IMG/VR virus record: IMGVR_UViG_3300035235_000230
Coordinates: 1 to 44,204 of that record
Length of the DNA: 44,204 nucleotides
Reading direction: 5' to 3' (one strand)
Source: a virus
Lineage: Duplodnaviria > Caudoviricetes
This document shows positions 11,082-33,137 of the stretch, in pieces (positions within the stretch are counted from its first letter, which is position 1; every line of letters starts with the position of its first letter). A program made the translations under genes and the position numbers. Below the pieces are notes generated by a model. It had not been told where the DNA came from and made no database searches. It saw nothing but the letters and a program-made list of their open reading frames with translations.

Positions 11082-12456
11082 GGATCTTTTCGTCCAGTGT
11101 ATCAGGCGACACCATATCAATATAGGTAACGGTGTTCTTCTGGCCGATGCGGTGCGCCCTGTCCTCTGATTGCAGGCGTATCTCCAAATCGTAGCTGTTG
11201 CTGAAGTAGATCACAGTCGTTGCGGCGGTCAGGGTAATCCCATAACCGCCCGTCTTTGGTTGGCCCACAAAAAACCGCAGGCGGTCCTCTGGATCTTGAA
11301 AGCGCTCAACAATTTGTTGTCGCTCGTCTTGGGGCGTCTCCCCGTAATAAAGTGCGACTGCTTCGGGCCCAAAGCAGTCGCGCAGGGCAGAATGTATCCG
11401 TTGAATATCGTGGGTGTACGATGCCCAAATTATACATTTTCCCTGAAGCTCTTCCGTAATGCTCATTAGCTCGTCCAGACGGTTACTGTCCAAGCTTCTG
11501 GTTTCTCCTATGTCAGGAGTGAAATGCCCACAGCATATTTGCTGCAAGCGCATAATCTGTGTCAGGACACTGGTAGTCGTGGCTAACTCTCCGTTGTCCA
11601 ATTGGGCCAAAGCCATGTCCTTCATCTGGTTATACAGTTTTCCCTGTTCCGCCGTGAGAGGCACGTAACGCTTCGTGTAAAGCTTTTCGGGTAGGTCTAG
11701 GCATTCTGACTTCAATATGCGCGTACTGAAGCCTGTCAGGCGCTCGTTAAGCTCTTCTAAGCGTCTATACCCCACAATCTCTTGGAACGAGCGGTGACCC
11801 ATCTTCTGTTGGCGTACTACAGCATACCTGTTCTGAAAAGCAAAGTAACTATTATAGCCCAAGGCCATTGGGGCCAAGAACGAACACTGGCTGAACAAAT
11901 CCATAGGGCTCTTTGTAATGGGAGATCCTGTCAGGATGCGGCGGTACTTGGCAAACTTTTGCAGAACTTGCAGGTTTTTTGTACGCGCTGCCTTGCGGTT
12001 CTTAATCGTAGTGCTTTCATCCACCACCATCATATTGTTTGGGTTTTGTACAAGGAACCGCCCCGCAGTCTTCGCTCCCCGCTGCGTAGAAAAGGCTTCG
12101 ACATTCATTACAAAAATCTTCAAACCATCATAGTCTTCCATGATGAACTCTTCTAGCATGGCCATGTAAGTTTTCGTGGTCTTTGGATCCCAACGCACGA
12201 TGCTACTCTTAATGCTCTCCGGTAGATGCGCGGGGAACTCACCCTTCACCCAGTTATCGTACACACCCTTTGGAGCTATGACCAAAGCAGCGTCCAGTTC
12301 ACCCTGCTCATAAAGAAGTCCAATGTTATCAATGGCTACCTTGGATTTACCTGTACCCATCTCCATAAACAAAGCATAATACTCCGCGGCCCACGATTCG
12401 TTGAGCGCATCCGCTTGGTGTTTAAAAGGTTTTGTTTTAAAGTTGTAGTTCTGCAT
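11008..12456 (-). CDS. SNF2-family (SF2) helicase
   Basis: MEMGTGKS, VDES, LTGSP, GYGITLT and QSEDRAHRIGQ motifs. Start moved to ATG 12456, which has an AAGGAG RBS. Confidence 0.92.
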   Translation of the reverse strand: MQNYNFKTKPFKHQADALNESWAAEYYALFMEMGTGKSKVAIDNIGLLYEQGELDAALVIAPKGVYDNWVKGEFPAHLPESIKSSIVRWDPKTTKTYMAMLEEFIMEDYDGLKIFVMNVEAFSTQRGAKTAGRFLVQNPNNMMVVDESTTIKNRKAARTKNLQVLQKFAKYRRILTGSPITKSPMDLFSQCSFLAPMALGYNSYFAFQNRYAVVRQQKMGHRSFQEIVGYRRLEELNERLTGFSTRILKSECLDLPEKLYTKRYVPLTAEQGKLYNQMKDMALAQLDNGELATTTSVLTQIMRLQQICCGHFTPDIGETRSLDSNRLDELMSITEELQGKCIIWASYTHDIQRIHSALRDCFGPEAVALYYGETPQDERQQIVERFQDPEDRLRFFVGQPKTGGYGITLTAATTVIYFSNSYDLEIRLQSEDRAHRIGQKNTVTYIDMVSPDTLDEKILTALKSKVNLAETVLGEEARQWFQ

Positions 12457-12466
12457 CTTTTTCTCC

Positions 12467-12507
12467 TTGACTATGGGATAAGATACAAATATATGGGAAT
12501 ATGTCAA
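12467..12507. promoter_or_regulatory. Overlapping divergent sigma70-like promoters
   Basis: TTGACT at 12467 (+) and TTGACA at 12502-12507 (-) lie between the divergent genes, with two TATGGGA boxes between them. Confidence 0.6.
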
Positions 12508-12552
12508 GGCTCGTAAAAGGAGTCTTTAACCACGAAAAACGGAACATGAAAC

Positions 12553-13134
12553 ATGAATGATATATCTGAACTAATGGAAGCGGACTTTGAGTCCACCTTC
12601 GCAAACCCTCTAGAAAAAACCAATTACTCAGCTTTGTCCACAGTGTCAAAGTTGGCTCGTGCTATCAAGGCCAAAGAGCAGGAAGTCCAGTCACTGGATG
12701 ACCAGCTTAAACTTGCCAAAAAAGAATTGCTCAAGTTGACAGATGAAGAATTGCCTGCCTCTATGGCAGAGGTGGGTCTTGCATCATTCACCTTGGACGA
12801 TGGTTCGGAAGTAAACATCAAGCCAACGTATGGTGCTTCGATTTTAGTAAAGAACCGTGAAGCCGCTTACGAGTGGCTACGCGATAATGGCTATGACGAT
12901 ATTATAAAGAACACAGTTTCTTGTAGTTTCGGAAGAGGCGAAGACGACAAGGCTTCGGCCTTTAAGGCTTTTGCTTCGAATGAAGGTTATTTGGCGGAAC
13001 AAGCCACGGGTATTCACTCTTCAACCCTTCGGGCGTTTGTCAAAGAACGTGTCGAAAACGGAGATGAATTTCCAATGGATTTATTTGGGGCGTATGTAGC
13101 ACAACGCGCTGTTATTAAGAGAGGGAAAGCCTAA
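12553..13134 (+). CDS. Conserved phage replication-module protein (193 aa)
   Basis: N-terminal coiled coil, WLRDNGYDDIIK and STLRAFVKE. First gene of the replication operon. Confidence 0.65.
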   Translation: MNDISELMEADFESTFANPLEKTNYSALSTVSKLARAIKAKEQEVQSLDDQLKLAKKELLKLTDEELPASMAEVGLASFTLDDGSEVNIKPTYGASILVKNREAAYEWLRDNGYDDIIKNTVSCSFGRGEDDKASAFKAFASNEGYLAEQATGIHSSTLRAFVKERVENGDEFPMDLFGAYVAQRAVIKRGKA

Positions 13135-13907
13135 TGGGTAAAGTTGCTAAGAAAAACGAAACAAATGTCGTAGAGTTCGATATCTCTATGATGGAAGCCG
13201 ACGCAAGCGTTGGTGTTTCAAACATGGGCCAAGACGATCTGGCCCTGCCGTTCCTAAAAATCTTGTCAGGGTTGGACCCCTTGCTAGATGAGTTAGATGA
13301 AGCCAAACGCGGTGACCTATACAACACCGTCAGCGGTCAAATCTACAAAGGGAAAGAGGGAGTACTTTTGATCCCTTGTGCCTACCAACGTAGGTTTATC
13401 CAATGGGCTCCACGGGGCGCAGGAACTGGGGCACCTATCGCTATCTTTGACACGGCGCAGGATTGCCCAAAGACAGAGCGCAGCAAAGACGATAACAAAG
13501 ATTACGTTGTCGGCGGTGACGGCTCTTACATCGAAGAAACTCATCAACATTTTGTAATACTGGTGAACGAGGATGGTTCGGCGGAAACGGCGCTTATCGC
13601 CATGAAGTCAACCATGCTTAAGAAAAGCCGCAAGTGGAATAGTATGATTGCGTCCGCTACGGTGCAGGGCAAGAACGGTCCATTCACTCCACCGCGCTTT
13701 GGTTTTATCTATCGCGCAAAAACAGTGATGGAAGAAAACAGCAAAGGCAGTTGGCACAACTGGGAAATCTCGCGAGAGAAACAGGTGGACGATGCCGCGC
13801 TGTATGTTCGGGCAAAAGACTTTTCTACAACCATCGACAGCGGTGATGTTGTGGTCAAGCACCAGAACGAAGAGGCGCAGAACAAGTCGGACGACGTTCC
13901 ATTTTAA
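13134..13907 (+). CDS. Putative single-stranded DNA-binding/annealing protein
   Basis: Acidic C-terminal tail DDVPF typical of SSBs, beta-rich core, directly upstream of the primase. Confidence 0.6.
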   Translation: MGKVAKKNETNVVEFDISMMEADASVGVSNMGQDDLALPFLKILSGLDPLLDELDEAKRGDLYNTVSGQIYKGKEGVLLIPCAYQRRFIQWAPRGAGTGAPIAIFDTAQDCPKTERSKDDNKDYVVGGDGSYIEETHQHFVILVNEDGSAETALIAMKSTMLKKSRKWNSMIASATVQGKNGPFTPPRFGFIYRAKTVMEENSKGSWHNWEISREKQVDDAALYVRAKDFSTTIDSGDVVVKHQNEEAQNKSDDVPF

Positions 13908-13913
13908 TGCAAC

Positions 13914-13938
13914 GGGCGGCGCAAGCCGCCCACCTTTT
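13914..13938 (+). terminator. Hairpin / weak intrinsic terminator between SSB and primase
   Basis: GGGCGGC-GCAA-GCCGCCC followed by ACCTTTT. Confidence 0.55.
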
Positions 13939-13949
13939 CTGAGGTATCA

Positions 13950-15488
13950 ATGTCTGTCCAACAATTCTCAGCCATCTTTGATGGCCTGCAAGAGGCATAC
14001 GGCACTTATCGCGTAGATAAAAAGCAGGCTAACGGGAAAAATACTGGCAAAGCACAAATCATTCGGGAGCCACGCTCCGCGAAGCTATGGCGGGAGCATC
14101 TTTCTGGTAAAGGTGCCTCAATGGGTATCATCCCCATCAACGCCGAAAACAAATGCAAGTGGGGTTGCGTAGACGTAGACCAATATCCCCTTGATCACAA
14201 ATTACTGGTAGAAAAGGTCCGCAGGCTTAAGCTGCCTCTGGTGGTATGCCGTTCCAAATCAGGCGGGGCGCACTGCTTTCTGTTCTCTATCGAATGGGTC
14301 GAAGCTTCTGATATGCAGAAGGCCCTGCAAAATATTGCCGCGGCCCTTGGCTATGGCGGTAGTGAAATCTTTCCAAAGCAAGTAAAGCTGCACCTTGATC
14401 GTGGAGACGTCGGTAACTTTCTTAACCTACCGTACTACGACGCAGAAGAGGGGCTACGCTACGCTATCTTAGATGACGGCACCTCTGGTACTCTGGAAGA
14501 GTTTTTGGCGCTGTACGAGGCGCATAAGCAAACACCGGAACAGATCGTCAATCTGCAAGTAACGCAGGAAAACGATAGCGAGGCCTTTGCCAACGGTCCG
14601 CCGTGCCTCAAAGCCTTAGCTCGTATCAAGATATCAGAGGGTGGGCGCAACAACGGCCTGTTCAACGTTGGTGTATATCTGCGTAAGGCGCACCCTGACA
14701 CGTGGGAAACAGAAATCCTGCGCTATAACAACGATTACTTTGAGCCGCCTCTGCCTCTTAACGAAGTTAACGTGGTCGCCAAGCAAGTGCAGCGCAAAGA
14801 ATATGCTTACAAGTGTAATGATGCGCCCATCAATGCTTACTGCAATAAGGATCTATGCCGTACCCAACGGTTTGGTATCGGAGCCGCAGCGTCAGGAGTT
14901 CCCGTAGCAAACCTGCGCAAGTATAACTCCACGCCACCTGTGTGGTTCTTGGACGTCAACGGTGAACCCTTAGAGCTAGACACAGATGGTCTAATGAACC
15001 AACCCTCGTTCCAACGGGCCTGCATGGAGCAACTTAATCTCATGCCGCACACTGTAGCCAAACCGCAGTGGGAAGGACGGATAAGTTCCCTACTACGCGA
15101 AATGGCAGAGAATGACAGTGCCATTGTCGAGGTCGCACAAGATGCCAGTATCAACGGGCAGTTCTACGATTATCTGGAAGAGTTCTGCGTCTTACTGCAA
15201 ACCGCGCAAGACAAGGAAGAAATCTTACTTCGCCGCCCGTGGACAGATGACGAAGAGCAAATGACTTACTTCCGTCTGAAAGACTTCGAAGCCTTTCTAA
15301 AAAAGAATAAGTTCTTTGAACTCAAGTCGCACAAGATTGCTCAACGCCTACGGGACATTAACGGCGAAAGCATGTTGCTTAAAATCAAAGGTCGGCCTGT
15401 CCGCGTATGGAAGATCCCTGCTTTTGACAACGGTGACGTTGAACTGGCCACTCCAATCTTTGCTGCAAAAGGTGAGGCACCCTTCTGA
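13950..15488 (+). CDS. Archaeo-eukaryotic-type primase with PriCT-like domain
   Basis: DVD (GCVDVD) and RSKSGGAH catalytic motifs, PPC...EGGRNNGLF PriCT-like segment. No fused Walker A is visible. Confidence 0.75.
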   Translation: MSVQQFSAIFDGLQEAYGTYRVDKKQANGKNTGKAQIIREPRSAKLWREHLSGKGASMGIIPINAENKCKWGCVDVDQYPLDHKLLVEKVRRLKLPLVVCRSKSGGAHCFLFSIEWVEASDMQKALQNIAAALGYGGSEIFPKQVKLHLDRGDVGNFLNLPYYDAEEGLRYAILDDGTSGTLEEFLALYEAHKQTPEQIVNLQVTQENDSEAFANGPPCLKALARIKISEGGRNNGLFNVGVYLRKAHPDTWETEILRYNNDYFEPPLPLNEVNVVAKQVQRKEYAYKCNDAPINAYCNKDLCRTQRFGIGAAASGVPVANLRKYNSTPPVWFLDVNGEPLELDTDGLMNQPSFQRACMEQLNLMPHTVAKPQWEGRISSLLREMAENDSAIVEVAQDASINGQFYDYLEEFCVLLQTAQDKEEILLRRPWTDDEEQMTYFRLKDFEAFLKKNKFFELKSHKIAQRLRDINGESMLLKIKGRPVRVWKIPAFDNGDVELATPIFAAKGEAPF

Positions 15489-17005
15489 TGTTTAGAATAT
15501 TTGGACCGCCCGGAACGGGCAAGACCACTACGCTACTAAATATGGTAGACAAAGCTTTGGAAGCAGGCACCCCACCACAATCCATAGGGTTCTTGGCCTT
15601 TACCCGCAAAGCGGCAACAGAAGCAAAGGAACGCGCTGCGGCGCGTTTTCGTTTGGACCCACAAAAGGATCTGCAATACTTCCGCACCCTGCACAGCTTT
15701 GCACTCTCTTTGTCAGGCATTCGTCCAGAACAAATTATGCAACCTGAGAACTACAAAGAACTTAGCGAAGCAATGGGCATCAAACTGGAGACAGGTCGCG
15801 TCAATCAATTAGAAGAAGACGTCCAAGATGCTGTCAAAGCCAGTGACCCCATCCTTGGGCTCATCAACCTCGCGAGGCTGAAGAAGACTTCTTTGCGTAA
15901 GGAGTACAACCTTAGCAGCCTGCAACACGATTGGAACACCGTCAACCATGTGGACCGCTCGCTGCGCTCTTACAAACACGAAAGCGGCCTTTATGACTTC
16001 ACCGATATGCTGCAAGGTTTTATCGACAAAGGACACCAGTTCTGCCCGCGCTTTAACCTGTGTTTTGTAGACGAAGCACAAGACTTATCTCCCATGCAGT
16101 GGGATATTGCCCATCTGATAGAAGCCAAAACCAAGCAGATGTATTGCGCAGGGGACGATGACCAAGCCATATATAAATGGGCAGGGGCCGACGTCGAACA
16201 CTTCCTTGGACTGGACGGTGGATCAGAAACGCTCAAACAATCCTACCGTATACCCGCAAGCGTTCACCGCGTAGCAGAAACAATCGCCCGCCGCATCCAT
16301 CACCGTTACCCCAAGATATACAAACCACGCGAAGAAGAAGGCCAATGCCGACGCGTGGCGCAAGTCGGGGAACTGGACATGAGCGACGGCTCGTGGCTCA
16401 TACTCGCACAAGCGGGATACCAACTACAGCCCGTGGCAACAGACCTACGGTCCTTTGGTTATCTGTACGAATATCGCGGCTCACGGTCCATTGGTCAAAA
16501 ACTAAGTGACGCTGTAAACGGGTGGACTGACCTGCAACGCGGTAAGGAAATACCTATCGACACAGCCCGAAACATCTATAGCTTTATGTCCACAGGGAAA
16601 CGCGTGGCAAGGGGGTATAAGAAAATCAAAGGAGTTCCAGATGACGAACTGGTTAACATCGACGATCTGCAAATATCCCACGGCCTTATAGCCACAAAGG
16701 ATATGATTTGGTCTGAAGCAATGGACCGCATTGCAGATAAAGACCGCGCCTACGTGACAGCATTGCTGCGCCGCGGAGAAAAGTTCAACGGCGTTCCCCG
16801 CATTGTAGTGTCCACGATCCACGGTTCAAAAGGTGGAGAGGCGGACAACGTTGTACTGTTTACGGACCTGTCCCCCGCTGCGGACAGTACCATGCGAATT
16901 GCACCCGACGATGTTCATCGTGTTTTCTACGTCGGCGTGACACGAACAAGGAAGAACTTGTATTTGGTGGAGCCTGAAGACGCGACAAGGAGTTATGATA
17001 TATGA
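15488..17005 (+). CDS. UvrD/Rep-like superfamily 1 helicase
   Basis: GPPGTGKT, AFTRKAA, DEAQD, GDDDQAIY, STIHGSKGGE and FYVGVTR motifs. Confidence 0.93.
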   Translation: MFRIFGPPGTGKTTTLLNMVDKALEAGTPPQSIGFLAFTRKAATEAKERAAARFRLDPQKDLQYFRTLHSFALSLSGIRPEQIMQPENYKELSEAMGIKLETGRVNQLEEDVQDAVKASDPILGLINLARLKKTSLRKEYNLSSLQHDWNTVNHVDRSLRSYKHESGLYDFTDMLQGFIDKGHQFCPRFNLCFVDEAQDLSPMQWDIAHLIEAKTKQMYCAGDDDQAIYKWAGADVEHFLGLDGGSETLKQSYRIPASVHRVAETIARRIHHRYPKIYKPREEEGQCRRVAQVGELDMSDGSWLILAQAGYQLQPVATDLRSFGYLYEYRGSRSIGQKLSDAVNGWTDLQRGKEIPIDTARNIYSFMSTGKRVARGYKKIKGVPDDELVNIDDLQISHGLIATKDMIWSEAMDRIADKDRAYVTALLRRGEKFNGVPRIVVSTIHGSKGGEADNVVLFTDLSPAADSTMRIAPDDVHRVFYVGVTRTRKNLYLVEPEDATRSYDI

Positions 17006-17319
17006 AAGTCTTCGAAGAGAAGTTGGGCCAAGCTATGGCCAAACTAGCTATCGTTGAAAATGCACGAGCCCGAAAAACTTGGGGGAACATGAACGCGTAC
17101 AGCGCGGAGAAAAATCAAAAAAACGCATACAAAGGGGGCAGGCCAAAGTCCGAAAAGTCTTTAAGGCCGCTTAACCCCACTGCTCGCATGGTCGATAAGA
17201 TGCTGAAAAATGGTTTGAATTGTGTTGAGATTGCAGATGTTTTAGACAAACACCCTGACACGGTGCGCGATATTAAATCGCGTTATGAATTACCACGGGA
17301 AGAAAAAAATGAAACGTGA
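17002..17319 (+). CDS. Small helix-turn-helix protein
   Basis: GLNCVEIADVLDKHPDTVRDIK HTH pattern. ATGA overlap with the helicase stop. Confidence 0.6.
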   Translation: MKVFEEKLGQAMAKLAIVENARARKTWGNMNAYSAEKNQKNAYKGGRPKSEKSLRPLNPTARMVDKMLKNGLNCVEIADVLDKHPDTVRDIKSRYELPREEKNET

Positions 17320-17560
17320 TGAAATTCTTGAGACAGCACAGTCTCTTATTAATGGCGAGCGAGCTTCCGAATACGGTGACGCAAAACAGAACTTCCAAGA
17401 TATCGCAGACCTCTGGTCCGTCTTTCTGGGTCGCCCGACAACGCGCCAAGAAGTGGCCGTCTGCATGGTCTTGGTAAAATCAGCACGGCTGATGAAATCC
17501 AACAAAGAGGACTCATGGGTGGATATCTGTGGGTATGCGGCTTTAGGAGGAGAGCAATGA
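17309..17560 (+). CDS. DUF6378-like phage protein (nucleotide-hydrolase-like helical fold)
   Basis: ILETAQSLINGERASEYG...DSWVDICGYAALG pattern. Start placed at ATG 17309. Confidence 0.7.
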   Translation: MKRDEILETAQSLINGERASEYGDAKQNFQDIADLWSVFLGRPTTRQEVAVCMVLVKSARLMKSNKEDSWVDICGYAALGGEQ

Positions 17561-19449
17561 GCCTACAGATGGCAATGTTCACACCGGAGAATGAATGGGT
17601 TCCGCCCAGTGAACTTCCTGATCTTACTGGTGCCAAGCGCATTGCTATAGATTTAGAAACAAAAGACCCAAACCTAAAGAATGCGGGCCCCGGATGGGCC
17701 ACCGGAGACGGTGAGGTAGTAGGTTATGCCGTTGCCACAGAGAACTGGAGCGGCTACATTCCTATTAGACATTTCGGCGGCGGGAACATATGCGAAAAAC
17801 AAGCCAATCGTTGGTTAAAAAAAGTTTTCGAAAGTCCCGCAGAAAAAATCATGCACAATGCTCAATACGACGTTGGATGGGCACGGCGCATGGGTTTTAC
17901 CGTAAATGGCAAAGTAATCGACACTATGGTCATAGCATCCCTGCTCGACGAAAACAGGTTTAGCTACACGCTTAACTCTCTGTCGTTTGACCATCTGGGC
18001 AAAGTTAAATCCGAAAAGCAACTGATCGAAGCTGCAAAAGCATTTGGCGTGGACCCCAAAGCAGAAATGTGGAAGCTGCCCGCCATGTTCGTCGGACCCT
18101 ATGCAGAGGCAGACGCAGAACTCGCACTGGAACTCTATAACTATTTCTCCGTAGAAGTTTCTAAAGACGGCCTGTCAAACATCGTGGACGTCGAAACACG
18201 GCTCCTGCCCTGCTTGGTGGACATGACTTGGCGCGGCGTCAGAGTAGATACGGATAAAGCAGAGCGCACACGCAATGCATTGCTCAAGCGCGAGAAAGAA
18301 ATTTTAAAAAAGATTAAGTCCACCGTGGGCTTTGACGTCGAGATATGGGCCGCACAGTCTATAGCCAAAGCTTTCGACGAAGCATCTCTCCCCTACGAGC
18401 GCACAGAAAAAGGTCAGCCATCCTTCACTAAAGGGTTTCTCTCTGACCACCCGTCAGAACTGGCGCAGCTTATCGTGCAAGCCCGTAACCTTAACAAAAC
18501 CTCTGGAACGTTTATCAACACCATCCTCAAACATTGCCGCTCAGATGGTCGTATCCACGCTCACATAAATCAAATCCGCTCTGACGATGGCGGCACGGTC
18601 AGTGGGCGCATATCCATGAACCATCCCAACCTTCAGCAAATCCCTGCACGGGATCCAGAGCTAGGCCCCATGATCCGCAGCCTCTTCCTACCAGAAGAAG
18701 GCGAGCAGTGGGCAGCAATTGACTTCTCGCAACAAGAACCGCGGATCTTGGTTCACTACGCGCACCTGTTTGGTGAACAGAGAGGTCGTCCTCTCAAAGG
18801 CGCAAAAGAATTTGTAGATAGCTACAACGAAGATAGCAGCACAGACTTCCACACGATGGTCGCAGAGATGGCGCAAATCCCACGCAAACAGGCCAAGACA
18901 ATCAACCTTGGCATGATGTACGGCATGGGCGTGGCAAAGCTCGCGGACCAATTAGATATTCCTGTGGACGAAGCCAAGGGTCTGGTTTCTCAGTACCATG
19001 ACCGTGTGCCTTTTGTGAAAGGTCTGATGCACGGGGTGATGAACAGGCTAAACGAGAAGGACAGTCGCGGGGCGCTGCGCTCGCTTCTGGGCAGGAAATT
19101 ACGCTTTCCGTTATGGGAGCCCGACACATTTGCCATGAACAAGGCGCTGCCATACGAGGAAGCCGTGAAAACATATGGCGACACAACACGCTTAAAACGC
19201 GCTTACACATACAAAGCCTTGAACCGTTTAATTCAAGCGTCCGCCGCGGACATGACCAAGCAGTCTATGGTCAACATATATGAAAGCGGACGTATCCCTT
19301 TGATACAAATCCACGATGAAATTGCCATGTCAGTAACAGACAGAGATGATGCAAAAAAGGTTGCACAGATGATGCAAAGTGCTGTACCATTAAGTGTACC
19401 TAGCCTGTGTGACGTCGAAGTAGGCCCATCTTGGGGTGAAGCCGTCTAG
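17557..19449 (+). CDS. polA: Family A DNA polymerase with 3'-5' exonuclease domain
   Basis: Exonuclease DLET, HNAQYD, YAEAD. Polymerase motifs DFSQQEPR, KTINLGMMYG and QIHDE. Start at ATG 17557 overlapping the upstream stop. Confidence 0.95.
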   Translation: MSLQMAMFTPENEWVPPSELPDLTGAKRIAIDLETKDPNLKNAGPGWATGDGEVVGYAVATENWSGYIPIRHFGGGNICEKQANRWLKKVFESPAEKIMHNAQYDVGWARRMGFTVNGKVIDTMVIASLLDENRFSYTLNSLSFDHLGKVKSEKQLIEAAKAFGVDPKAEMWKLPAMFVGPYAEADAELALELYNYFSVEVSKDGLSNIVDVETRLLPCLVDMTWRGVRVDTDKAERTRNALLKREKEILKKIKSTVGFDVEIWAAQSIAKAFDEASLPYERTEKGQPSFTKGFLSDHPSELAQLIVQARNLNKTSGTFINTILKHCRSDGRIHAHINQIRSDDGGTVSGRISMNHPNLQQIPARDPELGPMIRSLFLPEEGEQWAAIDFSQQEPRILVHYAHLFGEQRGRPLKGAKEFVDSYNEDSSTDFHTMVAEMAQIPRKQAKTINLGMMYGMGVAKLADQLDIPVDEAKGLVSQYHDRVPFVKGLMHGVMNRLNEKDSRGALRSLLGRKLRFPLWEPDTFAMNKALPYEEAVKTYGDTTRLKRAYTYKALNRLIQASAADMTKQSMVNIYESGRIPLIQIHDEIAMSVTDRDDAKKVAQMMQSAVPLSVPSLCDVEVGPSWGEAV

Positions 19450-19490
19450 TCATGTTAGTTCTGCTCATGGACAGATCGCCTGTCTTAACT

Positions 19491-19528
19491 CCCGTCCATT
19501 AGGTTTCGCACTGTTGGACGGGTTTTTT
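19491..19528 (+). terminator. Intrinsic terminator after the polymerase
   Basis: CCCGTCCA...TGGACGGG stem followed by TTTTTT. Confidence 0.6.
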
Positions 19529-19584
19529 CCTTGCTCTCCCCCATAACATCCTATATTGTTGGTTAAAACTAGAGAGGTTCACAT

Positions 19585-19731
19585 ATGGATACCGATAAAT
19601 GGAAAAGCGTTCTTGTCCCAATTGAGGTGTACAAGGAAATTAAAGCGCTCTCACAGACAGAGGGTCGTACAATTAGCGGTCAATTGCGAATCATCTTTGA
19701 GGCATACAAGCGCGAACAAGAAAACGCTTGA
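19585..19731 (+). CDS. Ribbon-helix-helix (Arc/CopG-like) DNA-binding protein, 48 aa; absent from the ORF track
   Basis: Translated by hand: MDTDKWKSVLVPIEVYKEIKALSQTEGRTISGQLRIIFEAYKREQENA. Strand-helix-GRT-helix pattern, GAGG RBS upstream. Confidence 0.75.
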   Translation: MDTDKWKSVLVPIEVYKEIKALSQTEGRTISGQLRIIFEAYKREQENA

Positions 19732-19812
19732 CTTATCCCATACACTTCTATATTCAGGGCATACCTCATAAAAGATTTGATTGCGCCCTGAAGTTTACTT
19801 TGGGGCGTTTTC

Positions 19813-20052
19813 ATGTCTAGCCAAGACGATTATCTTATCGCGCTTAAAGAAACTAATAAATTTATTGACGATATGATGGACACGGACCTCGACGCAGGGG
19901 CCGCGTATACAGGCATTATTACCGCCGCCGTCTTCCGCCTACTAAAAGGTTGTACCGATAAACAAGATGCAACAGGCATTATCGGTGCCGCAATGGCCTC
20001 GGCCAGCGCACATGTAGAGATGGAAGAAGGGGTTTTATCAGATATTCACTAA
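19813..20052 (+). CDS. Hypothetical protein (79 aa)
   Basis: Clean ORF behind a TTGACT promoter at 19728. Confidence 0.6.
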   Translation: MSSQDDYLIALKETNKFIDDMMDTDLDAGAAYTGIITAAVFRLLKGCTDKQDATGIIGAAMASASAHVEMEEGVLSDIH

Positions 20053-20057
20053 GGGTA

Positions 20058-20087
20058 TTGACATTATCCTATACCCTCGCATATACT
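20058..20087 (+). promoter_or_regulatory. Sigma70-like promoter for the RAMP gene and array
   Basis: TTGACA (20058-63), 18-nt spacer, TATACT (20082-87). The spacer carries TCCTATA and TCGCATA boxes. Confidence 0.75.
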
Positions 20088-20124
20088 CCTTTACGTTAAC
20101 AACGCTAACCAAAGGAAAAAAGAT

Positions 20125-20685
20125 ATGCGGAATGTTAGAGTACACTTTGAAGGCATCGCCCCTTACAGCCAATCTAAAATGCACGAGGAGCCCAAGCTCC
20201 CCAAAGAAACTGCCGACGCCTACGAAACAAGAACGTGGCGTTCTAAATGCACCGTCGATAAAGACGGCAACATTATTATCCCCGCGATGGCTATCAAGTT
20301 CAGCCTGTCCGCCGCAGCCAAAAAACTAGGAACACAAATTCCGGGCCGCGGTAAATCAACCTATACAAAATACTTTGAAGCGGACGTCGTACCGCTCAAC
20401 GATCCCAAGCTTGATACCAAGCAAGATAAAGTCAGAGGGGAACGCCTCAACGTTAACTCTGATGGCGTCAGAGGATCAGGTAAGCGCGTCTGGCGCACCT
20501 TCCCTGTCGTGGACACAGGATACAAGTCTTACATTGATTTTATGATTATGGATGACACCATCACCAAAGATGTATTCGAAGAGGTGTTCTACGCCGCGGG
20601 ATCAGGTATCGGCATTGGTCGCTTCCGCCCAGAAAAAGGTGGAACTAACGGTCGCTTCCGCGCCGTAAAGTTTGACTGGCAATAA
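20125..20685 (+). CDS. Stand-alone Cas7/RAMP-like RNA-binding protein (Vipr-like)
   Basis: N-terminal strand ending GIAP, IIIPAMAIKFSL (compare RAMP IPGSSLKG), thumb-like NVNSDGVRGSGKRVWRTFP, and C-terminal glycine-rich loop GIGIGRFRPEKGGTNGRF. AAGGA RBS. Confidence 0.75.
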   Translation: MRNVRVHFEGIAPYSQSKMHEEPKLPKETADAYETRTWRSKCTVDKDGNIIIPAMAIKFSLSAAAKKLGTQIPGRGKSTYTKYFEADVVPLNDPKLDTKQDKVRGERLNVNSDGVRGSGKRVWRTFPVVDTGYKSYIDFMIMDDTITKDVFEEVFYAAGSGIGIGRFRPEKGGTNGRFRAVKFDWQ

Positions 20686-20694
20686 GTTTATCAT

Positions 20695-21390
20695 CGCGTC
20701 GCGCCGTACTACGGCGCTTCGCTGCGCTCGGCATCGCTCGGCATATCGCCTTCACGCGTCGCCCCGCAATTCAACTCAAGGATTTGTTATGTACAACGCT
20801 ACGGACGCCGCAACTTGGCTCAGGGCACCTCAACGACTCGCAACGCGACTTCGCGTATTGCGACGCGCCGCAACTCAACTCAACGATTTGTTTGTTACTT
20901 TGCTCCGCACCGCCCCGCATCGCGGCGCTCCTCTCCGCTGTTCAACGCAATGCAACGCAACGATTTGTTTATTTCTTTTCGCGCCTCAACTCGCAGCGAC
21001 TTGGCTCGCCGCGTCGCGGCACCCCGCAATGCAACGATTTGTTTGTTACAACGCCTCTCCACGCGGCTCGGCTTCTCACAGGGCACCACGGCTCCCCGCC
21101 GCGCACCTCGCATCAACTCAACTCAACGATTTGTTTATTACGTCGTATCGCCCCGCGACACAGCTTTCCGCAACTCTACGCTTCTTTCGGCGGCGCTTCG
21201 CAACGCAACGATTTGTTTGTCAATTTATCGCCGCTCCTCCCCGCGTATCGGCTCACCGTAGCACTCCTCTACGCTACTCAACGATTTGTTTGTCAATTTA
21301 TTCCTTGCAACTCAGCGCCGCACAACGAAACGCAACAAACCGCGGCATGACGTATCGCCCCGCATATCAACGCAACGAACTGAAACTTAA
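20695..21390 (+). ncRNA. Putative guide-RNA array: 8 units of (CGC/CTC-NN)n pentamers separated by a constant CAACGATTTGTT linker
   Basis: Linkers start at 20777 (variant CAAGGATTTGTT), 20881, 20958, 21032, 21124, 21206 and 21279. Units keep a 5-nt register, e.g. 20901 TGCTC CGCAC CGCCC CGCAT CGCGG CGCTC CTCTC CGCTG TTCAA CGCAA TGCAA CGCAA. The repeat structure is directly visible; RNA function is inferred. Confidence 0.8.
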
Positions 21391-21403
21391 CTAGGAAAAA
21401 CAA

Positions 21404-21808
21404 ATGTTCAAACGTTCAAAAATAACTTTGGATATGTGCGACTTGTTCCGTAATGCAAACGGACACCTAAGCTACGACACAATCCAAACCCACTTTGGCA
21501 AAACTATAAATGAACTGCGCCCAACAATCCTCGCAGCCAGAAAATATCTTGAAAGAGACGAAAGCGTCGTCTTCGAAAACGTCAGAGGCGAAGGTTACAA
21601 ACGCCTCGACGATAGCGGAAAAGTGGACAGCCTTAAAACGTTCACACGACGCATCCGACGGACCGCCAATAATGGCCAACTCAGGTCACAAACCGTCGAA
21701 AAACGTGAGGAACTGTCCAACGATGACAGACTACGCCTCACGATCCGCGAAACGGCACTCTATGCTATCCAAACGCAACTCCAAGAAATCAACGATAAGG
21801 ACAGGTGA
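21404..21808 (+). CDS. Winged-helix-like protein directly after the array
   Basis: AGGA RBS at the array end. Helices followed by wing-like VFENVRGEGYKRL and a basic helical C-terminus. Confidence 0.65.
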   Translation: MFKRSKITLDMCDLFRNANGHLSYDTIQTHFGKTINELRPTILAARKYLERDESVVFENVRGEGYKRLDDSGKVDSLKTFTRRIRRTANNGQLRSQTVEKREELSNDDRLRLTIRETALYAIQTQLQEINDKDR

Positions 21809-22023
21809 TGAGCCACAAATATAAAATCTGCGCCTTCTATGTTATTAAACAATTAGAAGACATTAAAAAATCCAGCAATCCCGACATATTATTGCGGGAC
21901 TTTCTCAACCAATGCATCTACAATGTAGGTATTGATAGCATCGCAACGTGGAACGAGGAAAAACCACCAGAACCAAATCTGGTCGTCAAAAGAAAGAGAG
22001 GAAGGCCCAAAAAAGATGGGTGA
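21805..22023 (+). CDS. Small protein with C-terminal AT-hook
   Basis: KRKRGRPKK motif; overlaps the upstream stop. Confidence 0.6.
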   Translation: MMSHKYKICAFYVIKQLEDIKKSSNPDILLRDFLNQCIYNVGIDSIATWNEEKPPEPNLVVKRKRGRPKKDG

Positions 22024-22204
22024 CGAAAACCTTTCAATGTTCCAGTCAGCGCGCCTGCGCTGGCTGAAACGTCAAGTGGATAACCTGCAAGACCTGCGGT
22101 ACACGCGACACGCGCCAAAAGATCTGGAAATACAACTATTCTCCGCTCGCGAAGAACTAGACAACTTCGTAAACGAACTCAGGCAAACCAATGTTCAAAT
22201 CTAA
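22016..22204 (+). CDS. Hypothetical coiled-coil protein (62 aa)
   Basis: ATG 22016 overlaps the upstream gene end; MGDENLSMFQSARLRWLKRQV... Confidence 0.55.
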   Translation: MGDENLSMFQSARLRWLKRQVDNLQDLRYTRHAPKDLEIQLFSAREELDNFVNELRQTNVQI

Positions 22205-22487
22205 ACCAAAACCAGACGATATCGACTGGTCAACCGCATCCGACGATCCACGGCTCGCGGACCTCGCTAAAAAGATAGTCCTATACTTGAGTATAGGACT
22301 TGGCGCATAAGTATAGGAGTGACGTAACGTCATTATCCGTTAGTATGTATGGGATTTAACCCATATCCATGCTACTATAGTGTATGGGCAAAGTGCGCCC
22401 GACGCTATTTGACAATTGAATACCTCAACCCGACTAGGGCCAACGCCCGATCATGTCAGACACAATCTTTTGATGAGGTAAATCAAA

Positions 22488-23189
22488 ATGAAAATCAAAC
22501 CTGTTACTCATATCAGTACAGATCGAAATCGCTATTGCGGCCCCGCCGTGATCAGCGCAGTCACGGGCATGAACAGCGGAGAAGCCGCAAGGCTCATCCG
22601 TTCAGTCAGCGGACAACGAGCCGTAAGAGGAGCCTTTACCGCACACGTGCGACGGGCCATGAAAATCTGCGGAATACAAAGCATCTATCGAAGCTGCACT
22701 CCAAAGATCACGCTCGCCGCTTGGCTGAAAGAAAGCAAAGGTTTGCGGACCACGGGCCGCGTGTTTCTGGTTGTCGCAGGCCATCACTTCCAACTGATCG
22801 AAGGTAGACGGTACGTCTGCGGGCGCACACGAGACCTCGTGAGCATCAAAGACAAACAGGTCAAACGCAGAGCACGTGTCGAAGAAGTCTACGAACTGGT
22901 GGCCGACGGCAAGATCACAATACCCGATCAAGCCCGCAAACCAAAACAACCCGCAAATCAATACCGCAGCTACATTGACAAGATGAAGCGAAAGTATGGC
23001 TTCACAGTCGAATACGAGAGATACACCCAAGTCTACTGGGCCCACATGCCTCAGTTCGCAGAAGACCTAGCGTGGGACACGGGCCACCATCTCAGAGATG
23101 AGCATGGTTGCTACAGTCAAGGAGAAGTAGCAGACCGCTTCGAAGCAATGGCAGAGTTCATGGAAGAACACTGCATGGAGGACGCATAA
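22488..23189 (+). CDS. Hypothetical protein with C39/papain-like Cys-His N-terminal domain
   Basis: YCGPAVISAV and FLVVAGHHF. GAGG RBS. Confidence 0.55.
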   Translation: MKIKPVTHISTDRNRYCGPAVISAVTGMNSGEAARLIRSVSGQRAVRGAFTAHVRRAMKICGIQSIYRSCTPKITLAAWLKESKGLRTTGRVFLVVAGHHFQLIEGRRYVCGRTRDLVSIKDKQVKRRARVEEVYELVADGKITIPDQARKPKQPANQYRSYIDKMKRKYGFTVEYERYTQVYWAHMPQFAEDLAWDTGHHLRDEHGCYSQGEVADRFEAMAEFMEEHCMEDA

Positions 23190-23401
23190 TGATCAGACTG
23201 TATCAAATGCAACGAATAACGTTTCCAACTCCTAGAAAATGCCCCTACTGCGGTACACCCGCAGTAAAGGGCAAAGGAGAAGGCGGTAGGGATATAGACC
23301 CTGATCGTTACGGCCATCGTTATGGTTACTTCTGCACTCTTCGGTGCGGCACTAATTATGCAAATTATGTGTGGTTTCGGGAAGGAATTAAAAATTCATA
23401 A
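23189..23401 (+). CDS. Small zinc-finger protein (70 aa)
   Basis: CPYC...FCTLRC; TAATG coupling to the upstream gene. Confidence 0.6.
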   Translation: MIRLYQMQRITFPTPRKCPYCGTPAVKGKGEGGRDIDPDRYGHRYGYFCTLRCGTNYANYVWFREGIKNS

Positions 23402-23404
23402 ATT

Positions 23405-23430
23405 AAAGCCCGCTAATCGCGGGCTTTTTT
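23405..23430 (+). terminator. Intrinsic terminator
   Basis: AAAGCCCGC-TAATC-GCGGGCTTTTTT. Confidence 0.8.
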
Positions 23431-23489
23431 ATTGTCTTGACCGTACTCCCATAATATCCCATACTGGGCTTCTTTATGAGGAGATCAAA

Positions 23490-24005
23490 ATGCCATATCT
23501 ATACGAAAATCCCATCCTTAACATCGGCGTCTATTACGATAAAGAATGCATGGACGACGATCCGTCGATACATCCCTTCGATAACGGTATCGCAGAATAT
23601 ACCGCATCAACCATCCGTGATCACTTCTGTACCGCAGAAAAGACCGCCGCAATGTTTGGACGACGCCGAAATTTGAAAATGTGCGTCAAGGTAAAAGTGC
23701 CGTACAATGAAGAGAAGTTCAAAGAAAATCCGCATAACGTTGCTAAATTTGGAGGATACTACTTGGTTTGGCGGGATTTAATTAATTACAACGATGTTAC
23801 AGACCATCCCGAAGAACCTCCCCAGTGGCCCCAGAAGAAATGGCGGGTTGTAGTTGAGCAGCGCAACGTGTTCTACGAAGAAGCCGACACAGAACACGAA
23901 GCACGGAACATCGTTGCAGAAGATCGCATTTGGGGGCCAGAACACGGTATCGGCGGAGAAGATACCTACGATTTTGAAATTACTGTGGAGGAGGATGACC
24001 AATGA
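23490..24005 (+). CDS. Hypothetical protein
   Basis: Start placed at ATG 23490 after GAGGAG and a TTGACC promoter at 23437. Confidence 0.6.
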   Translation: MPYLYENPILNIGVYYDKECMDDDPSIHPFDNGIAEYTASTIRDHFCTAEKTAAMFGRRRNLKMCVKVKVPYNEEKFKENPHNVAKFGGYYLVWRDLINYNDVTDHPEEPPQWPQKKWRVVVEQRNVFYEEADTEHEARNIVAEDRIWGPEHGIGGEDTYDFEITVEEDDQ

Positions 24006-28939: not shown

Positions 28940-29261
28940 AGGCGCAGCTGCGCGACGGTTGCACCAGCTGGCGCGGATTTACTGCGCGGAAAACGGCGCA
29001 AAATTAATTGCATGCCTGCATTAAATTAGATCCGCGCAATTAATTAATTGCACCGGCTGGCACGGTTCGCGGCTCTTTTTTTGGGGCAGGGGCCCCTGCC
29101 TATCGGGTCAAATTGCGCAGTTTTCGCGCCAGATTCCGCGGTTTTCGCGCCGCGCACAGGGGTTTGCGCCACGGGTGCATGGGCCATGTTTTTGACAAAT
29201 AATCATGTAGAAAATACATTTGGTTTGCGTTAAGTTACATAAAATCGCATAGGGGCCCCCG

Positions 29262-30719
29262 ATGAATGCAACCGTAGGTTCAGTCGAAGATAAAGTGTTA
29301 AAGTTGCAGTTGCGTTTAGCGCAATTGGAGAAGAACGAGTTAGCGCAAAATAGTTTTCTACATTTTGTACATGCTATGTGGCCAGAGTTTATATCTGGTA
29401 GGCACCATAGAATTATCGCTGAGAAGCTTCAGCGGGTCGCGAGCGGCGATCTAAAGCGCTTGATTATTAACATGGCACCGCGGCACACGAAGAGTGAGTT
29501 TGCGTCGTTTTTGTTTCCTGCTTGGATGATGGGTCAGAACCCTCGGATGAAGATTATTCAGGCGACGCATACGACGGAGTTGGCTGTTGGTTTTGGTCGG
29601 AAGACGAAGAATCTTTTGGACACGGATGAGTACAAGGAGATTTTTCCTGATGTGAGGTTGGCTGCGGATAGTAAGGCATCTGGTCGGTGGGACACGAGCC
29701 GTGGCGGGATGTATTATGCTGTTGGTGTTGGGAGTAACTTGGCGGGTCGTGGTGGTGATTTGGTGATTATTGATGATCCACATTCTGAGCAGACGGCTAT
29801 GAGTAACAGTGGTTTTGATGATGCTTGGGATTGGTATACTGGGGGCCCTCGTCAGCGTTTACAGCCGGGAGGTAGTATAGTTTTGGTTCAGACTCGTTGG
29901 TCTGAGAAGGATATGACGGGTCAGTTATTGCGGGCTATGGCTAAGGATCCTTTGGCGGATCAGTGGGAGGTTGTTGAGTTACCTGCGATATTTGATGATG
30001 GTAAGCCGTGTTGGCCTGAGTACTGGAGTTTGGAGGATTTAACTGCGGTTAAGGCTTCTATTCCGCCTAGTAAGTGGAATGCGCAGTATCAGCAGAAGCC
30101 GACTGGTGAGGAGAATGCGATCATACCGCGTGAGTGGTGGCGTATTTGGGAGGGTGAGAACATCCCTCAATTGCAGTATGTGATACAGAGTTATGATACT
30201 GCGTTTACGAAGCGGGAGCGTTCTGACTTTAGTGCGATTACGACATGGGGGGTGTTTTATCCGGAGGAGGGTGGTCCGCCTAATTTAATATTGTTGGATG
30301 CGAAGAAGGGTCGGTATGATTTTCCTGAGTTAAAGGCGTTGGCGTTTGAGGAGTATGAGTATTGGGATCCTGATACGGTGATTATTGAGGCGAAGGCGAG
30401 TGGATTGCCATTGACGCATGAGATGCGTCAGACGGGGATACCTGTTGTGAATTTCACGCCTAGTAAGGGGAATGACAAGGTAAGTCGTGTTTATGCTGTG
30501 ACTCCGTTGTTTGAGGCAGGTATGGTTTGGGCCCCTGACAAGAGTTGGGCGGATGAGTTGATTGAGGAGGTTGCGGCGTTTCCGGAGGGGGAGTATGACG
30601 ATTTGGTAGATAGCATGACGCAGGCGTTAATGCGGTATCGTCAGGGGAACTTTATTCAGTTACCAACAGATGATTGGCATGATGTAGAAAAGTCTGCTAT
30701 GGTTAGGGCGTATTACTAG
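29262..30719 (+). CDS. terL: Terminase large subunit
   Basis: APRHTKS Walker A, IIDDP Walker B, QSYDTA and YDDLVD nuclease motifs. Confidence 0.95.
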   Translation: MNATVGSVEDKVLKLQLRLAQLEKNELAQNSFLHFVHAMWPEFISGRHHRIIAEKLQRVASGDLKRLIINMAPRHTKSEFASFLFPAWMMGQNPRMKIIQATHTTELAVGFGRKTKNLLDTDEYKEIFPDVRLAADSKASGRWDTSRGGMYYAVGVGSNLAGRGGDLVIIDDPHSEQTAMSNSGFDDAWDWYTGGPRQRLQPGGSIVLVQTRWSEKDMTGQLLRAMAKDPLADQWEVVELPAIFDDGKPCWPEYWSLEDLTAVKASIPPSKWNAQYQQKPTGEENAIIPREWWRIWEGENIPQLQYVIQSYDTAFTKRERSDFSAITTWGVFYPEEGGPPNLILLDAKKGRYDFPELKALAFEEYEYWDPDTVIIEAKASGLPLTHEMRQTGIPVVNFTPSKGNDKVSRVYAVTPLFEAGMVWAPDKSWADELIEEVAAFPEGEYDDLVDSMTQALMRYRQGNFIQLPTDDWHDVEKSAMVRAYY

Positions 30720-30728
30720 GAGAGTCGG

Positions 30729-33137
30729 ATGGCGCGGGCACCTATTGGCGGTTTGATGGACACGAATGTTCCGTCTCAGTTTGACGAGGCGGATTTAAGT
30801 GCTGAGTTAGAGTTAGAGATACCGGATTCCCAAGAGACTCCTTTGATGCTGGATAGCGGGGAGGAGATTGAGATTGTTGAGGAGGATGACGGGAGTGTTC
30901 TTGTAGACTTTGATCCTTCTGAGGACATGGCGGATGTTGGGTTTGATGAGAACTTGGCGGAGGTTATGGAGGATCGTGAGTTGGGTGCGATTGCATCTGA
31001 GTTGATGGGTGAGTTTGACGCGAACAAGGCCAGTCGTCAGGAATGGGAAGATGCGTATACTGAGGGGTTAGAGCTTTTGGGCTTTAACTATCAGGAGCGG
31101 ACGGAGCCGTTTCGTGGAGCCTCTGGTGTGACTCACCCGTTATTGGCGGAGGCTGCGACGCAGTTTCAGGCGCAGGCGTTTAACGAGTTATTGCCGTCAT
31201 CTGGGCCTGTTCGGACTGCAATTATGGGTGATGAGACTCGTGAGAAGCAGGATCAGGCGTCACGTGTTCGTGGGTTTATGAACTATTACATTACGAATGT
31301 GATGGATGATTACACTCCTGACATGGATCAGATGTTGTTTTATTTACCGTTGGCGGGAAGTACGTTTAAGAAGGTTTATTACGATGAGGTAATGGGCCGT
31401 GCGGTAAGTAAGTTTGTTCCTGCGGAGCAGTTGGTTGTTCCGTATGAGACGTCTGATTTGGATACGTGTTCGAATATTGCGCATGTTATTCGGATGAATT
31501 TGAATGATTTACGCAAGCAACAGTTGGCGGGTATTTACCGTGATATACCGATTATACCGCAACAGGCTGATGCGAGTGAGGTACAGGGTGAGTTGGATCG
31601 TATTACGGGATTTGAGCCCGGAAGTATTGATTATGACTGTACTTTGTTGGAGTTCCACGCGAATTTAGACCTTGAGGGGTTTGAAGATGTGGATGAAGAC
31701 GGGGAGCCTACGGGTATTAAGATTCCTTATATTGTGACGATTTCGCAAGATAATGGGCAGATATTGTCTATTCGGCGTAATTATCGCGAGGACGATGAGT
31801 TAAAGCGTAAAATACAATATTTTGTACATTACAAGTTTTTACCGGGCTTTGGTTTTTATGGGTTGGGGTTGATCCATACGATTGGTGGTTTGTCACGAAC
31901 TGCCACAGCGGCGCTGCGACAGTTGATCGACGCTGGTACGTTGTCCAATCTCCCAGCGGGTTTCAAGGCCCGCGGACTACGGATCAGGGACGATGATGAT
32001 CCGTTGCAGCCGGGTGAGTTCAGAGATGTGGACGCACCGGGAGGGGCTATTCGTGACAGCCTGATGCCGCTGCCATTTAAGGGTCCGGACCAGACTTTGT
32101 TTCAGTTGCTGGGTTTTGTGGTTCAGGCGGGTCAGAGGTTTGCGACTATTACTGACATGAAGGTTGGTGATGGTAATCAGAACGCTGCGGTAGGTACGAC
32201 TCTGGCTATGTTGGAGCAGGGTTCGCGAGTAATGAGTGCTGTACATAAGCGGCTTCATTATGCGATGCGGATGGAGTTTAAGCTGCTTTCGCGGGTGATG
32301 AGCGAGTTTTTACCGCAGGAGTATCCTTATACGGTTGAGGGCAGTGATCAGGCGGTTATGGCGTCTGATTTCGATGATCGTGTGGACATTGTTCCTGTTA
32401 GTAATCCGAATACGTTTAGTCAGGCACAGCGGATAGCTTTGGCCCAGACTAAGATGCAGTTGGCTGGAGCGGCCCCTGAGTTGCATAATATGCACGAGGT
32501 GTATCGTGATATGTATGAGGCGATTGGTGTTACGGATGTTGATCGTTTAATGAAGAAGGTTCCGGACGAGGAGCCGCGGCCCTTGGACCCTGCTTCTGAG
32601 AATATTAACGCGATGGACATGGTTGAGTTGAATGCGTTTCAGGGTCAGAACCATCAGGCTCATATTATGGCTCACTTGGTGTTTGGTTCTAGTCCGATGG
32701 TTGGTGGAATGCCTCCTGTTGCGATTTCGATTCAGAAGCATGTTATGGAGCATGTAAAGTTGCAGGCGGAAGAGCAGGCGATGATGCAGTTACAGCAAGC
32801 TGGACCGATGCCCGCGGATCAACAGGAGATGCAATATCAGGCGTTGGTTGCGCAGGGCGTGGCGCAGGGTATGCAGCAAGCCAAGCAGATGAGCGCACAA
32901 GTCTCTGGTCAGGGACCGGATCCTTTGATAAAGTTGAAGGAGCAGGAGTTGCAGATCAAGGCTCAAGCGGAGCAGTCGGATGCGCAATTGGATCAGGCGA
33001 AATTGCAGCTTGATGCGCAGAACCAGCAGATGCGTGGAGAGCAGTTTGAGAAGCGGCTCGCGAGCCAAGAGGCTATGACCGCGGCGCGTATTGACAGTGC
33101 GATGCAGCGTGAAATTATGAAGCAAAGGGGTCAGTAA
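30729..33137 (+). CDS. Portal protein
   Basis: 802 aa directly after terL, P22-like size with GFGFYGLG and a Q-rich C-terminal coil. Confidence 0.85.
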   Translation: MARAPIGGLMDTNVPSQFDEADLSAELELEIPDSQETPLMLDSGEEIEIVEEDDGSVLVDFDPSEDMADVGFDENLAEVMEDRELGAIASELMGEFDANKASRQEWEDAYTEGLELLGFNYQERTEPFRGASGVTHPLLAEAATQFQAQAFNELLPSSGPVRTAIMGDETREKQDQASRVRGFMNYYITNVMDDYTPDMDQMLFYLPLAGSTFKKVYYDEVMGRAVSKFVPAEQLVVPYETSDLDTCSNIAHVIRMNLNDLRKQQLAGIYRDIPIIPQQADASEVQGELDRITGFEPGSIDYDCTLLEFHANLDLEGFEDVDEDGEPTGIKIPYIVTISQDNGQILSIRRNYREDDELKRKIQYFVHYKFLPGFGFYGLGLIHTIGGLSRTATAALRQLIDAGTLSNLPAGFKARGLRIRDDDDPLQPGEFRDVDAPGGAIRDSLMPLPFKGPDQTLFQLLGFVVQAGQRFATITDMKVGDGNQNAAVGTTLAMLEQGSRVMSAVHKRLHYAMRMEFKLLSRVMSEFLPQEYPYTVEGSDQAVMASDFDDRVDIVPVSNPNTFSQAQRIALAQTKMQLAGAAPELHNMHEVYRDMYEAIGVTDVDRLMKKVPDEEPRPLDPASENINAMDMVELNAFQGQNHQAHIMAHLVFGSSPMVGGMPPVAISIQKHVMEHVKLQAEEQAMMQLQQAGPMPADQQEMQYQALVAQGVAQGMQQAKQMSAQVSGQGPDPLIKLKEQELQIKAQAEQSDAQLDQAKLQLDAQNQQMRGEQFEKRLASQEAMTAARIDSAMQREIMKQRGQ

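Follow-up and report, generated by a model that had tools for sequence, protein, structure and literature searches.

A VIPR variant with a C-(G/T)-C handle in a marine phage, and predicted targets for two, possibly three, of its eight guides

What is the role of a run of five-nucleotide units, in which a loosely kept triplet alternates with two freely varying bases (NN), lying between two small genes of a marine phage? The window analysed here, by which we mean the whole 44,204-nt stretch of IMG/VR record IMGVR_UViG_3300035235_000230, contains such an array, and a preliminary description made from the letters alone proposed that its information lies in the dinucleotides and that one target base is skipped between them. 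We report that the locus is a real variant of the VIPR system, with targets predicted from sequence for two, possibly three, of its eight guides, and that it likely silences rival mobile elements in the host of the phage.

The phage is related to marine HTVC023P, with a genome of 44 kb and a PolA that is 51-55% identical to those of HTVC023P-type phages. A CRP-901-type identity was considered and rejected, because that group is described as having no PolA (PMC10149686). Genes for an SNF2 helicase, AEP primase, UvrD helicase, PolA, terminase, and portal are found at 11008-19449 and 29262-33137. Across the terminase and portal genes, at 29001-33000, GC skew is strongly positive (0.27-0.40), which sets this stretch apart from the remainder of the window. 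The features of the locus are as follows.

20058..20087, + strand: sigma-70-like promoter site before vipr, 11 of 12 consensus matches, putative function
20125..20685, + strand: vipr, a 186-aa stand-alone RAMP with a Cas7/Csm3-like fold and a glycine-rich loop
20685..20779, + strand: U1, predicted guide, with a core common to 16 of 16 close relatives
20804..20883, + strand: U2, predicted guide, matching a provirus primase-helicase gene
20896..20960, + strand: U3, predicted guide, in pentamer register
20975..21034, + strand: U4, predicted guide, in pentamer register
21047..21126, + strand: U5, predicted guide, spelling 13 codons of an HGGxSTG motif
21139..21208, + strand: U6, predicted guide, in pentamer register
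21227..21281, + strand: U7, predicted guide, in pentamer register
21301..21390, + strand: U8, predicted guide and last unit, without a constant tail at its end
20780..21300, + strand: seven short constant linkers of 12-19 nt between the units, starting at 20780, 20884, 20961, 21035, 21127, 21209, and 21282; candidate processing sites
21404..21808, + strand: vap-like partner, 134 aa, predicted N-terminal winged helix followed by long helices

The eight units comprise 117 pentamers, and the dinucleotide strings and coordinates first read by hand agree exactly with the sequence, save that U1, whose string was right, starts at 20685 and not at 20695; the ten bases gained upstream are two pentamers, and both added dinucleotides fit the best U1 target. 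A 10-nt tandem duplication is present in U1 and absent from the L001 counterpart of that unit. Each unit closes with one to four pentamers in which NN is AA, the linkers of U1-U7 begin with (C/G)GATTTGTT, a short constant tail of these units that the preliminary description had left out, and the leader before U2 takes a 2-nt step out of register. The array region ranks top in the window for lag-5 autocorrelation (0.51 vs a median of 0.25), and the repeats in 19000-23500 consist of pentamer units only.

The handle is real but loose and degenerate. The triplet had been described as mostly CGC or CTC, and C-(G/T)-C indeed occupies 67 of the 117 pentamers; shuffling within units, repeated 2000 times and scored each time in the most favourable register, gives a mean of 16.4 (sd 2.3, maximum 26). 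The triplet counts are CGC 46, CTC 21, CTT 9, CAC 6, GGC 5, and others 30. Entropy by position, calculated as had been suggested at period 5 over 94 core pentamers with the trailing AA units taken out, is 1.00, 1.37, and 0.80 bits for the triplet and 1.95 and 1.97 bits for NN, so information is concentrated in the dinucleotides as claimed without being confined to them, for the handle varies too. Folding of the units is no better than that of shuffled sequences (z -0.2 to 0.2), except in U1 at -2.2. Contigs assembled from RNA runs cover parts of the locus in four runs and are uninformative on transcription, strand, or ends.

The gene upstream of the array encodes a Vipr-family RAMP with an RRM core, a thumb, and a G-loop. 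It has 1175 homologues, and when a profile of 113 of these was compared with PDB sequences, the Vipr of SUSP1 (PDB 36pp) was the sole match up to E 10, at E 4.5e-4; hhalign placed the two proteins together with a probability of 86% over thumb and G-loop. The structure model (pLDDT 95) resembles Cas7/Csm3 by Foldseek (E 2.5e-8) and by VIA (Z 12.1, rmsd 2.6, 144 residues aligned). Pfam holds no family for Vipr or for the partner, and no Cas family was found among 30 ORFs scanned in Pfam. Best fold matches of the partner are winged-helix regulators, all at E > 0.07, and its alignment with Vap1, the gene after SUSP1 vipr, covers 78 columns at 21% with a non-significant hhalign E of 0.051; one of its homologues is labelled wHTH by its source.

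VIPR was described in 2026, with SUSP1 type II as an example comprising Vipr, Vap1, and four vrRNAs (10.64898/2026.04.26.720920, 10.64898/2026.04.26.720927, 10.64898/2026.10.15.759431). As presented in the text of these preprints, discrete vrRNAs of about 100 nt co-purify with Vipr and direct programmable transcriptional silencing; the skip rule, wobble alignment, satellite and prophage targets, and non-GGY repeats are all stated there (10.64898/2026.04.26.720920), the repeat being defined as "GGY/NN or a related consensus" and the Vipr phylogeny having seven types, I-VII. The non-canonical repeats named include NNNGG, YNNNG, and NNNNG (10.64898/2026.04.26.720920, Methods), and GAC/NN, CAC/NN, WGT/NN, and TGH/NN (10.64898/2026.10.21.760802).

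The window shares with SUSP1 a stand-alone RAMP, a small partner predicted here to be winged-helix-like, pentamers made of a triplet plus NN, the lack of a self-target, and, as predicted here, the skip-one rule with wobble alignment and targets on both strands, in satellites and prophages, including recombinase genes. It differs in its C-(G/T)-C handle, since GGY is found in only 5 of 117 pentamers, as the preliminary description had recognised in separating the handle from GGY. It also differs in its arrangement, with eight units between vipr and partner joined by linkers of 12-19 nt and ending in AA pentamers, where SUSP1 has a pseudoknot tail of 40 nt; the structured, invariant 3' tail of type II (about 40 nt) is missing. 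SUSP1 is an Escherichia phage, whereas the marine phage is known here from sequence. Like the published non-canonical repeats, the window has a non-GGY triplet beside a Vipr-like fold: CGC fits YNNNG (62 of 117 window pentamers) and CAC arrays occur in 4 of 81 clade loci, whereas CTC/CTT (30 of 117 window pentamers) fits none of the named patterns. With the Cas7/Csm3 backbone of class 1 CRISPR systems (types III and VII) it has in common the RAMP fold, the G-loop, and a predicted guide-RNA filament; unlike them it has no repeat-spacer array and no cas gene among the 30 ORFs scanned, and two of every five guide bases would be read.

A set of 81 vipr loci, the window and 80 relatives, places the array in a clade. 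The dominant triplet is CGC in 62 loci, CTC in 5, CAC in 4, GGC in 8, and AGC in 1, one array being cut off; C-first pentamer arrays are present in 71 of the 81 and a partner homologue in 64. In the eight GGC loci the array and vipr share a strand, an observation in favour of the + strand as the one that encodes the guides; matches to targets are uninformative on this point. Sixteen close relatives carry 6-11 units per array where complete, and whole guides are shared, swapped, and recombined among them. The preliminary description held that dinucleotides as conserved as the triplets among relatives would count against a guide role. In 41 orthologous guide pairs, which are not independent of each other, differences by position occur at rates of 0.074, 0.057, 0.019, 0.083, and 0.076, so that literally NN is about as conserved as handle positions 1-2; this is because whole guides are inherited, rather than because information is lacking, and a comparison of unrelated units shows differences at 73% of NN positions vs 32-55% for the handle.

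The guides appear as mosaics, with internal duplications of 10-15 nt and 5' and 3' halves swapped between units (window 20732-20741 in U1; L004 unit 4; L015 units 6 and 9), which suggests that recombination through shared handles makes new guides. The end of U8 (21373-21390) is resembled by the out-of-register leader before U2 (20792-20803), and leader-like sequence recurs ahead of several guides in relatives, where it may mark the insertion point of new units.

Viral contigs in a collection were scanned with skip-one seeds from U1, U2, U5, and U6. The U2 seed of nine dinucleotides gave two matches. One, which agrees with the guide at 25 of 26 bases once extended (12 of 13 dinucleotides), lies in the Toprim-AAA_25 primase-helicase gene of a provirus (L117/L119) that also carries an integrase, a repressor, an HNH gene, and a small terminase; the second (L118) was rejected, having no extension. 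Among 120 primase-helicase homologues, all 13 positions are codon-compatible with U2 at seven sites, one of them from a genome labelled Rhodobacteraceae. No copy of the gene turned up in 201 sampled genomes. Its closest named relatives are in the Roseobacter phages CRP-701 and CRP-406.

The U5 seed gave eight matches representing three distinct sequences, all in codon frame within the HGGxSTG motif, and membership of the HGGxSTG family (NF041373) was confirmed for three of the matches. The full pattern of 13 dinucleotides, which included two degenerate letters, found eight further loci (six metagenome, two genome), with 26 of 26 bases in six of them and some being satellite-like. The contexts include an integrase with AlpA (L109) and a VapE-like gene (L115). 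Since the matches range from 34 to 65% GC and fall in different hosts, they name the gene family and not the actual target element; no other guide exceeded 83% on the 16 U5 loci, and a literature search on HGGxSTG returned nothing. As computed matches, U2 and U5 are shown to fit real genes, each dinucleotide covering two bases of a codon and the wobble base being passed over. In all five in-gene sites tested, the third codon position is the one skipped, in keeping with the wobble tolerance proposed in the preliminary description.

U1 fits less firmly. Its seed gave nine matches, and on L127 ten consecutive dinucleotides of its core are predicted to pair antisense within an integrase gene, the match ending after 10 of 16. 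A rival site (L128) in an unrelated phage gene fits a sister variant at 21 of 22 bases. Seven of the nine seed matches were rejected as having no useful extension; L130 is an unrelated contig of 29% GC. For U6, the viral contigs yielded 20 matches, all at 8-9 of 12 and none above 9 of 12, and 401 Alphaproteobacteria genomes searched with three mismatches yielded a single match, outside an open frame and at chance level. No target for U3, U4, U7, or U8 was found in the phage's own genome, the related vipr loci, or the two target contigs, and in searches for self-targets and in related vipr loci the best guide scores were at chance for skips 0-2.

An independent check came from sister phages: 72 guides were placed on the two target contigs (L119 and L133) at skips of 0-3, with 100 shuffles each and local controls. 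At skip 1, guides that had not been used as seeds beat all 100 shuffles five times in L119 and three times in L133. In L119 they comprise a family that matches the U2 target gene in antisense, at up to 24 of 28, and one guide (L013 unit 5) before the HNH gene, at 21 of 24; in L133 they match PolA at 20 of 22 and the HGGxSTG gene at 19 of 26, with one marginal match. Of 432 guide-locus tests at skips 0, 2, and 3, three beat all their shuffles, as many as chance would give, and contiguous reading (skip 0) gave no targets. The skip-one patterns proposed at the outset find targets well above both shuffled and other-skip controls. One provirus, which has an integrase and a repressor, is thereby hit by three guide families, and the element that combines integrase, PolA, and HGGxSTG genes is likewise hit by three. 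When relatives of the two target elements were sought, nothing but the elements themselves came back, and window guides placed on 150 PolA relatives gave nothing above shuffles.

The L013 unit 5 site, at L119:11392-11427, covers the 30 nt that immediately precede the HNH start codon, in frame with the gene, although a stop codon lies within. The L133 element (L127:4401-9830) carries an Arm-domain tyrosine integrase, a family A DNA polymerase, and the HGGxSTG gene, with no virion genes among the listed ORFs; its PolA family is large, with 1702 representatives at E up to 1e-30.

We hold with high confidence that the array is a VIPR guide cassette on a C-(G/T)-C scaffold, predicted to act against prophages and satellite-like elements in the host of the phage by silencing their genes. 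By analogy with SUSP1, vipr, array, and partner would be transcribed as one + strand RNA from the promoter at 20058, and the array RNA would be cut at the short linkers into guides of 70-100 nt. Each pentamer would be bound by one Vipr protomer with the triplet hidden, leaving NN to pair with double-stranded DNA on either strand; binding would then keep resident elements from transcribing their integration, replication, and packaging-linked genes, and the winged-helix partner may act as an enhancer.

In one variation on this scheme the units stay uncut, and Vipr coats a single long array RNA to form a filament with several guides; this would account for linkers that are short and unstructured. 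It agrees with linkers of 12-19 nt for which no stable fold is predicted and no Rfam match was obtained, and with the absence of a + strand terminator-like site from 19900-22500; against it, every close relative has conserved linkers that interrupt the 5-nt register, and VIPR arrays are described as staggered and processed (10.64898/2026.04.26.720920, fig. S18 legend). We regard an uncut array as unlikely. We also think it improbable that lytic competitors or genes of the host are the natural targets of the cassette and that the matches in prophages and satellites are mere homologues of those targets. Six near-identical U5 matches in a phage terminase region, the U1 rival site in a phage gene, and the U2-target relatives in CRP-701 and CRP-406, from a group reported to be mostly without integrase (PMC12629253), would suit that reading, but placing the guides on the CRP-701 and CRP-406 genomes gave nothing above z 2.9, and the convergence of three guide families on each of the two integrase-bearing elements speaks for resident targets. 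That the region is a decayed microsatellite, as the preliminary description had already argued against, or a protein gene of low complexity, in either case serving no guide function, has next to no chance: each of the three + strand frames stays open over 190-240 codons, but spacer length modulo 3 varies over 13 loci (0 in two, 1 in eight, 2 in three), unit number varies from 6 to 11, whole units are exchanged between relatives, NN strings spell foreign genes, and the gapped matches refute it.

The initial interpretation of a guide cassette is thus supported, and the mechanism is the published VIPR one rather than a new one. What appears new is that targets are predicted for a VIPR with a C-first handle and that one residue is a candidate determinant of handle specificity; VIPR itself, wobble skipping, and non-GGY repeats had been published. 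"CGC" is absent from the text of three VIPR preprints, whose figure S17 or data tables may show the clade, and both "CGC" and "CTC" are absent from the text of the mapping preprint (10.64898/2026.10.21.760802), whose figure S10 or data tables may do so; we found no text naming the CGC/CTC handle, its targets, or a specificity residue, which figures and data tables may contain. The predicted targets would extend the skip-one, wobble-aligned code to a non-GGY scaffold, an extension that the text of the preprints assumes without showing targets. In addition, the guides may serve to predict host and competitors of an uncultured HTVC023P-related marine phage, U2 pointing to a Rhodobacteraceae-like prophage.

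How a C-first handle is read may be approached through the protein, where the analysis offers one candidate residue for scaffold specificity. SUSP1 D177, W178, R179, and R138 align with R166, F167, R168, and F126 of the window. D177 and R138 are described as base-reading residues in SUSP1 Vipr, with D177 reading G (10.64898/2026.04.26.720927), and it is likely, judging from the alignment, that the handle is unlike GGY because these residues differ (D177 and R138 to R166 and F126). Alignment columns were compared with handles in 58 non-redundant clade proteins, a set that excludes duplicates and three loci in which the gene is partial or the array cut. The middle base of the handle is tracked most closely by G-loop residue 166, where R goes with G in 52 proteins and with T in 2, Q with A in 2, and Thr with T in 2. 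The two Q166 rows lie apart on the tree, which implies about three switching events. Exceptions are L016, which is clear, and the window itself, with R166 and 28-33% T. No protein column simply explains handle position 1, and a change of D177 to R as the cause of C at that position was rejected, all eight GGC loci keeping R166. Residue 166 as handle-specificity determinant is a lead, not a result.

A broader and rather doubtful proposal is a scaffold code in which the middle handle base is dictated by one residue of the G-loop (Arg-G, Gln-A, Thr-U), with at least three independent switches and mutually orthogonal families. Were it true, C-handle Viprs would ignore the GGY decoy guides of satellites, the tolerant G/U handle of the window would mark a relaxed reader, and the clade would provide natural orthogonal silencers together with a map of the prophage and satellite competitors of abundant uncultured marine phages.

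One supported subclade (96/94) unites GGC, AGC, and CTC handles (L057, L059-L062, L065, L067, L075, L070, L077, and L080) and forms a natural series for handle evolution. The related marine phage DSL-LC04, a cultured phage (OR003939.1; L132:1990-2929), has a canonical GGY array and a Vipr homologue that is annotated as an HTH regulator and is 28% identical to the Vipr of the window, and is suited to VIPR work in aquatic Gammaproteobacteria.
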